A stretch of 62,610 nt of DNA, the filler included, from Globobulimina sp. (lineage: Eukaryota): NCBI GenBank assembly GCA_003354225.1. It is 31 parts of 31 records of this genome, joined end to end, with 100 filler letters (N's around TTAATTAATTAA, not from the genome) between each part and the next. Parts side by side here need not be neighbours in the genome. Positions count along the whole stretch, not along the records: positions 44,514 to 46,435 come from PIVH01010565.1; 30 more parts are not named here. One strand, written 5' to 3'. Position numbers and translations under genes: made by a program. Shown here in pieces: positions 2,026 through 60,589 of this stretch; the first letter of the stretch is position 1, and the number at the start of each line of letters is the position of its first letter. Under the pieces are notes generated by a model that was not told where the DNA came from, searched no databases, and was given only the letters and a program-made list of their open reading frames with translations.

Positions 2026-2289
2026 CTTTCCAGATTATCCAAATCAAAACGTACAAATTTATTAAAACAAATCAAGAATTTAGATGTTGACAAAGATAAT
2101 TATATTTTTGTTGGATTAAATGGTGCAATATGGACACCAACAACACTCACAAAATTGGTGCGACAATTTATTAAATTCATAGTTGTTCCAAATCCGAAAG
2201 CATATCCAACGTATAGCATTCGCATTGGCTCAACTTCATTATGTTATTTGCAAGAAATTGATTTATTAAAGATGATAAGATATGTTTGA
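2026..2289 (+). mobile_element. C-terminal fragment of DIRS-type tyrosine recombinase (truncated; not in ORF track)
   Basis: Manual translation ...NYIFVGLNGAIWTPTTLTKLVRQFIKFIVVPNPKAYPTYSIRIGSTSLCYLQEIDLLKMIRYV* aligns with NYVFVGSNGAIWRPSKLT...KAFPPYSIRIGATSLCNQQGIDLLK in the YR at 45359-46435. Confidence 0.9.
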
Positions 2290-44513: not shown

Positions 44514-45230
44514 ATTTGCGGGAAAATGATGCATTGGGCACAGTTACGCAAACCTGCAAAAGTTTTATGCTACAGATTACTTAATATGATACATAAACAA
44601 ATCCGACAAAATAAAAAATTGAAAAATAAAATATTTTGGATCCCAGATCTCATAATCCAAGATTTCAAATTCTGGTTGAAATACGCCAATTATATGCGCG
44701 ATGTATCTATGCAATCAGTAATAAATCAGCCATCGATAACAATAACAGGTGCAACAGATGCAAGCAGTGTTGGTGGTGGATTTATTGTCGGTAAACACTA
44801 TGCAAACTATCGATTTTTAGACACTATAAATATGGAAGGAATGAATCATAGATATATGTCTATTAATTACCAAGAAGCACATGCCGTAATAATGTTAATT
44901 GACAATTTCAAATCATTGTTAACCGGCAGGAAGCTATTATTATATATTGATAATACTTCGGTATTATTCAGTATGTACAGACATTGGGCGGGAAGTCATA
45001 AACTAATGGAATTTATTCAGGAAATAGTTCTTTTAATGTGTACATATTGTATTGAAATCCACGTTGAATTTATTCCATCGAAGTTTAATGGTTTGGCTGA
45101 TTCCCTATCAAGATTTGAGATGGATCGTTTCTATGAAATTGTTTACGATTATAATATGATAATAGATCAAAATCCTTCCAAATTGATTTATTATCCCAAT
45201 CTCACATTATTGAATAACCCTAACGACTAA
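44514..45230 (+). mobile_element. DIRS/Ngaro retrotransposon RT connection plus RNase H
   Basis: ATDASSVGGG, SINYQEAHAV, LYIDNTSV, FIPSKFNGLADSLSR (D-E-D-D). Confidence 0.9.
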
Positions 45231-45358
45231 AAAAGAACTGCTCGTAAGTTTCCATGATTCAAACAAAAATTTAAAGACTTTGAGAGTTTTTTAGTTTTTC
45301 TTCAAGTATTTCACTAATTTACAGAAACGCTTTGTTGTTTGTTTGTATATCAACTTAG

Positions 45359-46435
45359 GAGTAACTTCGAAAGCAATATGGGCGGATCCAATGGCCCACG
45401 CAGACCCGACTACCACCAGAAATATTATACGAGATTTATTCAGAAAGAGACGAGTCACAACCAAATCAAACTATGTCTCAGTATTAAAGGATTGGTGGGG
45501 TTATTGTGTGGAACGTGGCAGAAACCCCTTCACAAAATATATTGATCCCAGAACGGCAATCTATTGGCAATATGATAGATGCTATAGATTAGGATCATGC
45601 AACTCACACACAACATGGTCATCTGCGTTATCTTGGTATACAAAAGCGTGTGGTGGCTCGCCAACATATTTAGATAATTTATTTTATCAGGATGTACATG
45701 AAACGATGCTTAAATTATATTTAAAACCTAGAGGCATAAGATTACCAATTCGGATTCGTTGGATTGTGAAATACTTACAATTAATTAATGTAACTCCGAA
45801 AACATGGGAAATTTGCCCAATTGACGATTTAACCAAAGCTTCGTTGATTTTGTTCTGTTTTTTCACGATAAGCAGACCAGCAGAACTACTGTATACAGAT
45901 AGCACCGAAAACGCTGAATGGGAAGTTATAACTACTGGTTTACGTTGGGGTGATATCACAGAACATAATTCGAACAAACCGTATGTGAGGAGATATTTAA
46001 AATTGATAATTAACTGGTATAAAAACCAAGAATTTAGGGATGTACCAAAGGAGATCTATATGGCACCACCAATATGCAACAATGTAAGAAATTGCCACTG
46101 CCGTTTCCTGGATTTCTTTGCTATATTTAAGATTTTATTGAGAAGACGACAGACTTTACATCGTCATTTATTACAGAAACAGAAATCAAAACAAAGGAAA
46201 CTTAAAAAGCAATTATTAACAAAACAACTACAAAATTTGAATACAAATAATTTCAATTATGTTTTTGTAGGATCAAATGGTGCGATTTGGCGTCCGTCGA
46301 AATTGACGCAATTCATGAAGGAATTCGTCAAATTACTTCAATTAAAAAAACCAAAAGCATTCCCACCGTATAGTATTCGCATAGGTGCTACATCCTTATG
46401 TAACCAACAAGGAATTGATTTATTGAAAGTCGGCT
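45359..46435 (+). mobile_element. DIRS/Ngaro tyrosine recombinase (3' truncated)
   Basis: FTISRPAELL (catalytic R), WYKN (K), YSIRIGATS; lies directly downstream of the RNase H. Confidence 0.9.
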
Positions 46436-48457: not shown

Positions 48458-48674
48458 NNNNNNNNNNNNNNNNNNNNNNNNNNNNNNNNNNNNNNNNNNN
48501 NTTAATTAATTAANNNNNNNNNNNNNNNNNNNNNNNNNNNNNNNNNNNNNNNNNNNNATTAAATGGCTTAAACAGCCAATGAGAATTAGAGAAAAATCAC
48601 CATATTAAAGTCTAAATATTACATAATCGAATGCATAAAATATTGTCACAATTTATGATTTAGCTTACAAATTA

Positions 48675-49532
48675 ATGAAATATTTAAATCCAGAAATTAG
48701 AAATATTGACCATAAATCTGCGACATTTGAAATAAAAACTTTATTCAATAATAAATGGAATGCATTCAATATAATCAAATTTATCATTGCATTCACAAAA
48801 CAGTTATCTGATCACTTAAACACTAAAATTGCCAAAGATAATGATGAAGCGCGTCTACTTAGAACCATTCGAACATTCTGCGCCTATAAAATGTTTGATT
48901 TACAAAAATTAAATGAAATAATAACAGATCAAATACGTAATGACTCAGTGACTGCAGTTGCATTTTTTATTTGGTTCAATGTTGGATTAAAATTAGCGCT
49001 CAAACGAGATCATTCATTTTATGTTACTTTCATCTCAAATTTAATGCAGTCGCAGTCCGCATTAAAAACAACAAAAACATTGATGTCGGTGTTATCGTCG
49101 ACATTTATTAATTTTGATCCCGATGAACTGCTGAAAAAAAGAGAAAAAATACCTTCGTCGATGACTTTGGCGGATTTGATTGTTTTAAAAGAATTAAAAG
49201 CTGATAATATTAATCAAAACTGGAACCAAAATATCTCCAATCAAAACTGGAGAAATAATAATAAATCCTTTAATAAAAATTCTTCAAATCGAAATATTTC
49301 AAACACTAATAATTGGAAATCGAATGTTGACCGAAATTTGAATATTTACGCGGCTGAAAAATTGATTAGAAATAAGTTGCGCGGCAAAAATATCAAATAT
49401 GATTTAAATAGTAAATATTGCTCATTTTTCAATGCTTATAGTTATTGTCGATATGGTACAAATTGTCGTAAAAAGCATCCCTGTATTTTTGATGATGAAA
49501 AACATTCATTAAGAGATTGCAAAGCTGTTTGA
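48675..49532 (+). mobile_element. Gag-like ORF1 of YR retrotransposon with terminal CCCH-type zinc finger
   Basis: YCSFFNAYSYCRYGTNCRKKHPCIFDDEKHSLRDC at the C-terminus, upstream of RT on the same contig. Confidence 0.7.
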
Positions 49533-49897
49533 TTAGATTGGCTCTATTATTTATATGAATATTCATTAAATTTGTTTATATTAATTGTAAATGGCTTCAA
49601 TACCATTAATTATCAGAAATTAATAATTTGTATCGATTAATAAGTTCTATATCCAAATTTAAATAATCTTCATTCAACTCAAATATCTTAAATCTGCTGT
49701 TTAAATTACTTAATTTTTAAATATTTAATTCCATTGATAAAATCTTTAATATTTTCATTTTAAATAAGTTTCAACGTTGAATTTGTATATCACAAATTTT
49801 CTGTTGTTATGTTGTTGTTCCTTTGCCCATTCCCTAATTTTTTCATCGTATTTTGAGAATGTTCTGTTTCAGCCATTGATACCAACATTGCGTCTTC

Positions 49898-50479
49898 AAT
49901 ATAAAAGCTTTTAGGAAATATTTAAAAAATAAACAAAGCAGAAATTTAGAAATTCATTTCATCGAAAATGGATTTCCTTTATGGTTGTCATTTTATAATA
50001 AAAATACTGCACCAAATAATTTGCCAACGGCTGTAAACAACAAAGCACGCTCAAAAAATGATATCATTGCATTTATTGATAAATTAGCTGAGGAGTGTCA
50101 GAGAGGTCAAATTGAGCCAATTAACTATGATCCAAAATATATATTAATGATATTTGGTACACCAAAAAAGGATGAATTTGGTTTATACACAAAAACCAGA
50201 GTCATCAGAAATGGCTCCTTTCACGAAAAAGGAAAAACTGCCATAAATGAATGGATACGTAAAGAAAAATGCAATATGAGAGATCTTCCGAACTTAAAAC
50301 AATACACAAAATTATTAATAAACCATAGATATATGTCTTTGAGGGATTTATCTGACTTCTTCCGACAAATAAAATTACCCGAATGTGATGCTGATTTTGT
50401 GGGATACTCCGTATTTGGCCTAAGATTTAGGGATCGAAGCCAACCATACGGTGTATCTTCAGCCCCCGGTAACTCTCAA
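49898..50479 (+). mobile_element. DIRS/Ngaro reverse transcriptase N-terminal part
   Basis: ENGF, FGTPKK...RVIRNGS, AINEWI, SLRDLSDFFRQI, SQPYGVSSAP (RT motifs A and B). Confidence 0.88.
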
Positions 50480-58758: not shown

Positions 58759-59996
58759 TTAGGGCCGCTCGCAAAGCATTCGCCCATACCGCGGGGTATG
58801 ACTCTGCAATAGTCGATTTTTTACATTGAGGTCATTATGAGAGGGACCATGAATAATATCTCGGACCATATGACTTAAACATATGGCATCTGGTCGGACA
58901 TATCGCATACTAATATCTGGTAATTTGGAGTCACTCCAACCTACATACTTCAAAATAAGTCCGTGAGCAATACCAACCTGCGAGGCTCGTGTAGTGCCGC
59001 CAATTCTTGAGCTATATGAGGAATATCGTTTAGGCTCGAGAATATATGTCTTATTGGCAGCAAGGACTTCTTTTATGATTTTAGCGAGATAGGTGGTGTT
59101 CACAACTTTGCCACTAGACCAAACCAATACATTGTTTTCCGCAGTAAGTCGTAAATTGTGTTTACGTATTTTATCATGGCACCCGAGAGTTAACAAGAGT
59201 TGTTTCCTTCTTTTTAGGTATACTCGCAATAATATTAATGGATTGAGTAACTTGCAAGGGCAGGAATGATTGGATAACAATGTTTTATCACAATAAGAAT
59301 TGCCTACATATAGGAGCTTAGAATCGCGTAACGATTTCATGGATTTATGCGAAACAATCTGAATACGAACAAAGTGTGTGGATGGTTTGCGTGGATTGGG
59401 TTTCATAAACGTAATGTGTTTGAATTTGATGCCTCTTTTGGTTTTAGAATAAGTGGAGAGTAATAACTCCGATGGCCTGGACATTGTGAAAAAGTATAAC
59501 TGGATAATAAGCACTTTTAACAATGTATCCAATGGAATGGTATAATATTTATCGATGACACAATTGGATTGAAGGGTATATCGGATTAAATGACTCATTT
59601 TTAGGGGCAATCTCGAATCAGATGGTTTATCAAATCGCTTCAATGCTGCGGATTTAAACCGATTATATTCGTTGTTATAATTAAAAACAGAGTCAATATC
59701 CGCGGCCTGATGTAACCAAAGGAGCATGGATTGTGACTGGCGAATACAATTTGTGTTATTTGCCTGTTGAATACGGTCAGCGATCCAAAATAGCGCTAAG
59801 GAGGCATTAGTAGGGAGTTCAAAGGGATTCTCTTTTAATGTAACACAATAAAACACCCAATTTCTTAATTGGGAAATGTATTGGACTTTGGTGCCGATAC
59901 ATTTATCTAATAAGTTAGTTTCGACAATGAAATCAGCAGTCTTTGGTTTTTTCTTAGCGAGGGAGTGAGTTCGCTCAAAACGTTTTCGATACCATT
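58759..59996 (-). mobile_element. DIRS/Ngaro tyrosine recombinase with all catalytic positions present
   Basis: MSRPSELL (R), SHKS (K), YSSRIGG, YVGWS (W), SMRYVR (Y); frame open up to 59997. Confidence 0.9.
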
Positions 59997-60050
59997 CTTA
60001 AATTAAAACAAAAACAATGGCAAGTTTAAAGAGACAACATATAAATGGAA

Positions 60051-60589
60051 TTACAACACAAAGTTGGATGCATAATTAGGGTATCCTCTGCGCGCTCTCT
60101 CTTTGAGTGGCAAACGCAAAAAGTCAATGAAAGTTTGATATTCTATATTGTCATAATCAATATCGGCCAATGGATTCTGGACATTATTGATTTGCTTGTT
60201 AAGAAATTTAAATTGGTCAAAGTATAATGGTTCTGTTTTTGATTCGGATATTGCAAGGTCAAAATTATGGACAATGGACCAAAACTCATCAAACTGCAAT
60301 CTAGAAAGGGCATCGGATAAGCCATTGGTGGATGAGGATATCCAATCTATCCATGCTACGAACTTGAATTCCAGCATAAGATGGCACAATTCATAGATAA
60401 ACAGCATCAGATTATATGAGGATGACCATTTTTTACGGACCGCATAATAACATGACTCATTATCAACAAATAAATGGATTGTTTTGCCAGATAAATAGTG
60501 GCGAAACGTATATAGCGCGGAAAGAATGACATGAGACTCTTTCTGATTGATATGCCAGTTGGCAGTGTGGTAGTCATTGAACATATAAA
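60051..60589 (-). mobile_element. DIRS/Ngaro RNase H (5' truncated)
   Basis: HINQKESHVI, LFVDNES, WISSSTNGLSDALSR. Confidence 0.9.

Follow-up and report, generated by a model that had tools for sequence, protein, structure and literature searches.

Introduction

The tyrosine recombinase (YR) of all Ngaro groups is described, in the available sections of PMC3783388, as encoded in a frame separate from that of the reverse transcriptase (RT) and RNase H (RH), and the reading frames of DIRS and Ngaro elements have been reported as overlapping or frameshifted (available sections of PMC3783388, PMC4157794, PMC7192593, PMC8547959, PMC12477816, PMC9940879 and PMC5633606). Here we describe pieces of Ngaro-like YR retrotransposons in a 62.6-kb stretch of DNA from Globobulimina sp. 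(GenBank assembly GCA_003354225.1), hereafter called the window, whose YR frame lacks a start of its own at the point where conservation sets in. At this point stands an AG that has its G in the first position of a codon (phase 1). We put the probability that this AG serves as a genuine 3′ splice site at roughly 0.8, and the YR protein is probably made from a spliced message, judging from the conservation of this site in related sequences.

The literature searched, in its available sections, reports no splicing for DIRS/Ngaro elements except for the introns of kangaroo-1; it does not cover Goodwin & Poulter 2004 and Duncan et al. 2002, which may bear on novelty. kangaroo-1, a YR element of Volvox, is named among retroelements with introns in their transcripts in the available text of PMC1636488. 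It would resemble the present elements as a YR retroelement with introns in its transcripts. To our knowledge, it has not been claimed for kangaroo-1 that a shared leader exon serves several frames.

In retroviruses, notably for the Pol of foamy viruses, one 5′ donor is joined to acceptors that precede the downstream genes, and RNA left unspliced serves as the genome. In rice tungro bacilliform virus, open reading frame IV is expressed by fusion of a short leader frame, in frame, to the downstream gene, and this is the closest functional parallel that we can name. Retroviruses and pararetroviruses differ from the present elements in being long terminal repeat (LTR) elements with other enzymes; here, splicing would be required for gag and RT/RH as well, and integration relies on a tyrosine recombinase. 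Introns or splicing are found as well in copia and Ogre, which replicate through RNA. Splicing is described in the RNA-replicating retrotransposon BARE (available sections of PMC3735527) and "spliceosomal introns" in Penelope-like elements (available sections of PMC4209133). The present elements would be like copia, BARE, Ogre and the Penelope-like elements in keeping introns or splicing to set protein ratios. In contrast, splicing in those elements trims one polyprotein frame or yields a gag-only message and does not provide start codons for several frames. Splicing in retroelements as such is already well known, and the retained intron that a sequence-only reading of this DNA had considered unusual for an element replicating through RNA is not paradoxical, since introns are kept, or RNA is spliced, in retroviruses, copia, BARE and Penelope-like elements as well. 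What would be new is a clade of YR retroelements that appears to depend on conserved phase-1 splice sites for its downstream genes, and perhaps for every gene.

Element fragments and their relatives

The window consists of 31 contigs of 1921-1924 nucleotides (nt) each, chained via spacers of N44 + 12 nt + N44, and is not one locus; its G+C content is 33.9%. At least four element fragments were found among these contigs. Two of them are central here: el1, on the plus strand of the contig at 44514-46435 (PIVH01010565.1), and el2, on the minus strand of the comparison contig at 58668-60589. On each contig, a short spacer separates the 3′ part of an RT/RNase H frame from the greater part of a YR frame; the contig ends truncate both elements approximately 0.8 kb upstream, and the RT domain lies outside both contigs. 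DNA relatives were taken from one metagenome scan, which gave five loci (L001-L005). L002 lies inside L005 at 99.7% identity, and L004 overlaps L002 and is without the N-terminus, leaving L001, L003 and L005 as three independent relatives. A word-indexed search with the el1 YR gave 17 protein homologues; the el2 YR, searched exhaustively, yielded 137, and 33 of these had E ≤1e-30. The coordinates given for el1 and el2 in the sequence-only reading were all correct on re-checking, and the features are as follows.

44514-45230, plus strand: 3′ RT/RNase H frame of el1, cut by the contig start; RT_RNaseH similarity and identity to L003; natural stop TAA at 45228-45230.
45231-45358, plus strand: el1 spacer, 128 nt, read as the 3′ end of an intron; branch-like CTAAT, T-rich tract and conserved acceptor AG.
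45244-45249, plus strand: GTAAGT, proposed local donor of el1, in phase 1 of the RNase H frame, 14 nt (4 codons) past the TAA.
45359-46435, plus strand: putative YR coding exon of el1, to the contig end; conservation with L003 and with the protein P0001, and YR profile searches.
60051-60589, minus strand: 3′ RT/RNase H frame of el2; Pfam RT_RNaseH; stop TAA at 60053-60051.
59997-60050, minus strand: el2 spacer, 54 nt, T-rich, ending in TAAG; putative acceptor AG at 59998-59997, phase 1.
58759-59996, minus strand: putative YR coding exon of el2, an open frame of 412 codons; homology to the el1 YR.

The el1 and el2 YR proteins were 27% identical over 350 residues (E 1e-32), and their RNase H regions were 31% identical. 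Pfam RT_RNaseH was matched by el2 with 25.8 bits (cut-off 24.8) and by el1 with 19 bits (E 0.0016), which is under the cut-off; the el1 RT/RH frame was 68% identical to that of L003 across 233 amino acids (aa). In L005, RVT_1 was matched with 31.7 bits (cut-off 29.6). When the el1 and el2 YR proteins were searched singly against Pfam, no match was found. A profile built from 36 YR homologues matched the integrase 3nkh (E 1.7e-5) and, weakly, Cre and XerH, and 12 of the 36 members of this set matched PF00589. In the YR alignment, R189, K238, W380 and Y392 were invariant, and G359 of the YSxRIG motif was nearly so. We take the four invariant residues to be the catalytic residues of a tyrosine recombinase, at the places expected of such an enzyme.

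The order of genes across el1, el2 and their relatives was gag-like, RT/RNase H and YR. Pfam searches found neither a DDE integrase nor an aspartic protease in the parts present of the L003 and L005 frames, and no methyltransferase in the el1, el2, L003 and L005 frames. The gap between the RNase H stop and the YR start (54-432 nt) leaves no room for a methyltransferase, the enzyme that follows RNase H in DIRS1-like and PAT-like elements, groups that also have inverted or split repeats with an internal complementary region. No repeats of at least 30 nt were found in L003 or L005, and all contigs end inside YR or earlier. The Ngaro group is defined by split direct terminal repeats (A1 ... B1 A2 B2), and a gag-like, RT/RH and YR arrangement without methyltransferase is the Ngaro-type layout. 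The el1 and el2 contigs are, by this gene order without methyltransferase and with the terminal repeats lying outside the contigs, pieces of Ngaro-like tyrosine-recombinase retrotransposons. They are like Ngaro elements in gene order, in having no methyltransferase, protease or DDE integrase, and in the separate YR frame. They are unlike them in one respect, as the available sections of the literature searched contain no start-codon-less frames behind conserved phase-1 acceptors.

When the contigs of one sequencing run (X1, kind not on record) were aligned to el1, 60 contigs matched and 35 of these were less than 90% alike, indicating that the el1 family is multicopy and diverged. One X1 contig of 2186 nt has 334 other letters in place of el1 45142-45463; it is a diverged copy with a spacer of similar length. 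Intron-less copies were looked for and none was seen, as no X1 contig joins across the el1 spacer, a comparison in which contigs cannot show absence.

A conserved AG at the beginning of the YR frame

Codons of the YR frame are numbered here relative to the conserved TKxxYxSxLxxWxxYC block (TK block). In el1, the stop-to-stop frame opens at 45295, a branch-like CTAAT lies at 45314-45318, approximately 40 nt before the AG, and a T-rich tract occupies 45332-45356; TTGTTGTTTGTTTGTATATCAACTTAG ends with the AG at 45357-45358. The G at 45358 opens the codon GGA, with 2 nt left before the next codon, and the TK block begins with its T at 45460, which places the junction codon at -34. An in-frame ATG is present in el1 at 45391-45393, 11 codons past the AG and 23 codons ahead of the TK block. 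Coding conservation of el1 with L003 and P0001 begins upstream of this ATG, at codon 45358-45360, where VTSKAIWAD in el1 corresponds to FTSKAIWAR in L003 and IAKETFWKD in P0001. The differences between el1 and L003 at third bases in this stretch indicate that it is translated. At the position of the el1 methionine, most relatives have L, I, F or Y.

In el2, the AG (TAAG|AA) is one codon off, at -35, and the junction codon is GAA. An in-frame TAA at 60000-59998 stands directly ahead of the YR frame and overlaps the acceptor AG, and there is no in-frame ATG before the TK block, both as noted in the sequence-only reading; the ATG at 59995-59993 is out of frame and reaches a stop after 6 codons. 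The first in-frame ATG was found 90 codons past the junction in el2, 70 codons past it in L001 and 116 codons past it in L003, which leaves three of the five elements examined as DNA without one ahead of the conserved block. In L005, an ATG follows the AG directly (-33). In-frame stops were present 1-3 codons upstream of the junction in el2, L003 and L005, and the el2 and L001 frames are open for more than 400 codons despite their 70-90 codons without ATG.

The shared position and phase of the acceptor, which had been claimed from el1 and el2, was borne out among the relatives. The G of an AG was the first base of codon -34 in el1 (TTAG|GA), L001 (TATATAG|AA), L003 (ATTTAG|CA) and L005 (ATACAG|CG), that is, with the same AG, phase and codon in three of three independent DNA relatives. 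The base preceding the junction G was A in all five DNAs (el1, el2, L001, L003 and L005); AG made up 3-7% of the dinucleotides in the 200 nt upstream of the YR acceptor sites. The place and phase of the AG are kept among relatives with 25-50% protein identity. Pyrimidine content was modest, at 50-73% in six YR acceptor sites on an AT-rich background, and in the 12 acceptor sites compiled it was 45-73%, with YAG (Y, pyrimidine) at 10 sites and AAG at two. CTAAT or CTAAC was found 30-40 nt upstream of the acceptor in el1 and L005, and the branch and pyrimidine signals were weak in L001 and L003.

Protein homologues carried the same mark. Many database homologues are raw frames from bacterial-type gene finders, which often read upstream past the true start. 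The homologues were anchored on the TK block, and the 19 with at least 36 residues ahead of it were used. Residue -34 was E, D, A, G or V, all with G-first codons, in 15 of these 19 homologues, compared with 0-37% (mean 17%) at 13 neighbouring positions (binomial P ~6e-9, the sequences being treated as independent). Residue -35 was one whose codon can end in A in 18 of 19, versus 48% further upstream (P ~2e-5, on the same footing). Upstream of -35 the homologues were unrelated and rich in F, Y and I, and downstream they were alignable. The G-first codons at -34 together with the A-ending-capable residues at -35 indicate that an AG straddles -35/-34, where conservation begins.

Alternatively, YR might be translated without splicing, from its own ATG (45391 in el1, -33 in L005), from a non-AUG codon or by reinitiation, the ATG-less copies being dead and the G-first codon encoding no more than an acidic residue. 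We consider this unlikely. el1 and L005 do carry in-frame ATGs, and several database homologues start with M at -23 or -33/-34, yet the el1 ATG is not conserved and the protein is conserved upstream of it. Residue -34 is indeed mostly E or D, but the conserved coding region does not include the base preceding the G, which is still A in five of five DNAs and, by implication, in 18 of 19 proteins. There are degenerate copies (el3, see below, and the C-terminus of el2), but the long ATG-less frames of el2 and L001 have stayed open. Moreover, a common near-cognate start codon was not seen, and the RT frame shows the same pattern.

A shared structure resembling an internal ribosome entry site was likewise not seen in the spacers. 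That of el1 had no marked RNA structure (fold z -1.17), and z was -0.48 for el2 and -0.84 for L003; the spacers of L005 (z -3.67) and L001 (z -2.73) have hairpins that are not common to the others. From the RNase H stop to the AG, the spacers measure 128 nt in el1, 54 nt in el2, 244 nt in L003, 223 nt in L001 and 432 nt in L005, and no sequence conservation was found among the five. A perfect hairpin, GAGAGACAAGTGATTGTCTCTC, is present at L005:5205-5226, just 5′ of the branch-like CTAAC before the YR acceptor.

Two other routes into YR were rejected. CAG|AAACG (el1 45322-45324, L003 5749-5751) as a coding acceptor would be phase 0 in el1, and in L003 it would be out of frame and then run into a stop. 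Joining of RH to YR by frameshift, readthrough or another genetic code is not compatible with frames that differ and do not overlap and have stops between them.

A matching start of the RT/RNase H frame in relatives

In L003 and L005, the RT/RH frames have no ATG for 89-95 codons and open just past stop codons. At their start an AG was again found (ATAG|AT in L003, ACAG|AG in L005) whose G is codon position 1, four codons ahead of a conserved PKL motif, and the homology between L003 and L005 begins right at this acceptor. The L003 RT/RH frame, used as query, retrieved 96 homologues; 29 could be anchored, and 17 had at least 11 residues upstream of the anchor. A G-first codon was present in 16 of these 17, at -9 (nine cases) or -8 (seven cases), the choice between -8 and -9 having been made after viewing the rows and reflecting a one-residue length difference between subgroups. 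The residue before the G-first codon was always S, L or T, which implies YAG|G.

Proposed local donors at the end of the RNase H frame

The sequence-only reading had paired the YR acceptors with local donors, GTAAGT at 45244 in el1 and GTTTGC at 60115 in el2, so that short introns near the RNase H end (el1 45244-45358, 115 nt; el2 60115-59997, 119 nt) would fuse RT-RH to YR. More generally, serial introns could produce a gag-RT/RH-YR polyprotein. This pairing has some attraction: the hexamer at 45244 makes a perfect donor and is in phase 1, with the CTAAT 40 nt ahead of the AG, and upstream of the RNase H stop phase-1 GTs are present in L003 (C|GTAAAT, 5542, five codons ahead of the stop, which would give an in-frame fusion) and in el2 (C|GTTTGC, 60115), although only in these two. 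However, the el1 donor lies past a natural stop. The RNase H stop is 5 codons past the conserved YYxxLxLL end in el1 (YYPNLTLL), L001 and L003 alike, and the match of the el1 TAA to the stop position of L001 and L003 shows that it is not a mutation. In el2, the RNase H frame has a 48-residue tail beyond the conserved end, and the 54-nt spacer is too short for a donor and an intron after the RNase H stop.

The candidate sites were not shared either. Those of el1, L003 and el2 are not at corresponding places relative to the RNase H end, and a counterpart of 45244 was not found at the matching place in L001, L003, L005 or el2. No phase-1 GT was found in the last 150 nt of the L005 RNase H frame, nor, by eye, in L001. 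No donor scoring at least 4 was found near the end of gag or RNase H, and no convincing conserved donor was found on the el1 and el2 contigs. Phase-1 GTs do occur inside gag (GTGAGT at L003 3420 and GTAGGT at L005 2381), and from sequence a donor within gag, or serial splicing into a polyprotein, is possible. Local or serial introns seem to us an improbable explanation on the whole. Two further donors were tried and rejected. GTGACA, overlapping the TGA stop of L001 and L003, is phase 2 and would give the wrong frame. T|GTATTT in the zinc knuckle of gag has a T-ending exon that would give a TAG stop at the L005 RT junction, and its conservation is probably that of the protein. In three gag-like frames (L003:3486, L005:2585 and the window at ~49482), this phase-1 T|GTATTT arises from KH.CI encoded by the same codons, TGT ATT.

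The proposal that YR is expressed by splicing is thus upheld as to the conserved acceptor and the absence of a start codon there in most relatives, and not as to the donors or the RT-RH-YR fusion through a 115-nt intron. The conservation check in relatives, which had been suggested for donor and acceptor together, came out positive for the AG and its phase and negative for the local donor. The Gag-YR type of fusion that had been offered as the other option fits better, with an upstream donor in a leader exon or in gag; its pairing with the YR acceptor is something that we infer.

A candidate leader exon upstream of gag

Candidate donors of a different kind were found upstream of gag. In L003, an ATG at 2042 opens a frame of 16 codons (MMNKKRKNRDLVDELQ) that ends in CAAG|GTAAGT at 2091, in phase 1, the best donor in its locus. 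In L005, an ATG at 1176 opens 28 codons ending in KDCLKEVQ, with CAAG|GTACGT at 1261, also in phase 1, and the two leader donors rank best or second-best within their loci. The gag-like frames begin with phase-1 acceptors as well (L003 TAAG|AG at 2510, L005 TTACAG|AC at 1482), and that of L003 is also without an early ATG. Within L005 gag, a 61-nt interval at 2020-2080 (CAAG|GTTAAG...CACACAG|CG) has both ends in phase 1 and holds a stop, and its removal restores the frame, indicating that these elements carry introns of ordinary appearance. An upstream exon ending in G would give a sense codon at nine of nine junctions, and one ending in T would give a stop at five of nine; the mostly acidic residue at -34 is compatible with a G-ending upstream exon.

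In the proposed mechanism, the upstream exon would supply the ATG and the first base of the YR junction codon, and the likeliest donor would be that of a short ATG-initiated exon located ahead of gag and closing with CAA G|GTA (phase 1), as in L003 and L005. Since the acceptors of gag, RT/RH and YR and the leader donor are all phase 1, a single donor could serve all three acceptors and produce three messages from one transcript, in the manner of retroviruses. The unspliced RNA would be the genome and the template for reverse transcription, so that the introns would persist in every new copy. In el1 and el2, the donor would sit upstream of the 1.9-kb contigs. That a shared upstream exon is spliced to the gag, RT/RH and YR frames in this full form has, in our estimate, an even chance of being correct.

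The acceptors might also receive a spliced leader in trans, which would resolve a polycistronic transcript into gag, RT/RH and YR messages. There is an acceptor ahead of each frame and no conserved local donor, and among YR elements VIPER resides in trypanosomes, in which every message is trans-spliced. A spliced leader, however, rarely gives an in-frame start codon and would not explain the kept phase. Both long relatives, L003 and L005, have phase-matched cis donors, each behind an ATG, which make trans-splicing unnecessary, and nothing points to the use of spliced leaders by the host. Trans-splicing is considered very improbable.

Several points weigh against the cis-spliced leader exon and, in part, against the acceptor itself. 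The leader exon was found in two relatives only, the peptides are weakly alike (RDLVDELQ and KDCLKEVQ), and the donor is not on the contigs of the window. A phase-1 acceptor precedes the leader exon of L005, which is therefore possibly not the first exon, and the upstream L005 frames are not homologous to the 494-codon frame of L003 at 498-1982; these frames further upstream, in L003 as in L005, may not belong to the element. The introns from leader to YR would span 3.7-4.0 kb. Phase-1 GTs exist closer to YR, both locally (el1 45244, L003 5542, el2 60115) and within gag (L003 3420, L005 2381). The in-frame ATGs of el1 (45391) and of L005 (after the AG) mean that both could start translation themselves, the E or D at -34 could partly be a conserved residue, and the P values given above were calculated for 50%-identity cluster representatives that are still related. 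The first "M" of database proteins may be a non-ATG start picked by a bacterial gene caller (compare P0005 with L001).

Upstream of its leader exon, L005 has CTAAC...CTAATATACAG|TC at 1140-1161, which contains the phase-1 acceptor, and, further upstream at 653, a phase-1 donor, GAG|GTATGT, that closes a 121-codon frame; there may be additional exons in this upstream region. The approximately 90 nt that immediately follow the leader donor on its 3′ side (L003:2091-2180, L005:1261-1350) are conserved as DNA between loci whose proteins are approximately 50-57% identical. The conserved blocks are GGGTCTG.TCCCTTT, CATCATGTGAGTC, GTAA[AG]T and TGACTTTGG, and two further donor-like GTs are included. 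This stretch may be a cis signal carried by unspliced RNA only. It was not found in the window, where the leader-region motifs were searched for. A broader proposal would be that a whole clade of Ngaro-like YR retroelements expresses gag, RT/RH and YR via alternatively spliced messages sharing one short ATG-bearing leader exon with a phase-1 donor, with the ~90 nt past the donor marking unspliced RNA for packaging or priming, much like the retroviral packaging signal; this is put forward tentatively and with more doubt than confidence.

Other fragments and homologues

Two more element fragments of the window are listed here.

48639-50479, plus strand: el3, a degenerate third fragment (contig 48558-50479); gag-like frame at 48639-49532, then RT homology.
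2029-2274, plus strand: C-terminal fragment of a fourth YR gene; 52% identity to the el1 YR, 82 aa.

The gag-like frame of el3 ends in KHPCIFDDEKHSLRDCKAV and is followed by a spacer of approximately 340 nt, AT-rich by eye, a T-rich tract with CAG (~49871-49873) and then PLIPTLRL. After 13 codons this frame is interrupted, and from 49883 similarity to RT resumes in a different frame; the el3 acceptor reads as phase 0. The C-terminus of the el2 YR (58759-58830, minus strand) is without the (V/I)(F/Y)DPW motif present in P0018, which is 73% identical; the el2 copy may have suffered damage towards its 3′ end.

Longer fused proteins were searched for and none was found, which is weak evidence. P0017 (NCBI source, 430 aa) has a gag-like first half and a YR C-terminal half in one frame; its junction is not at the splice sites proposed here, and its appearance is that of an element with an internal deletion or of an artefact of gene modelling. 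Searches of viral and prokaryote-genome collections for more relatives found none. Among related protein clusters in the Atlas, the commonest recorded phyla were Oomycota, Bacillariophyta and Basidiomycota.

Significance

The expression of DIRS/Ngaro proteins is poorly known, and the conserved phase-1 acceptors at the RT/RH and YR starts point to a concrete and testable mechanism for a retroelement class that is widespread, namely alternative splicing from a shared upstream exon. If true, this would account for the ragged false N-termini produced by gene callers and for annotations "without a start codon", and these elements would provide a second and independent example of the route by which retroviruses obtain several proteins from one genomic RNA. 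Should the mechanism hold for the whole clade, a retrovirus-like control by splicing would have arisen independently in a class of elements without LTRs and without an integrase.

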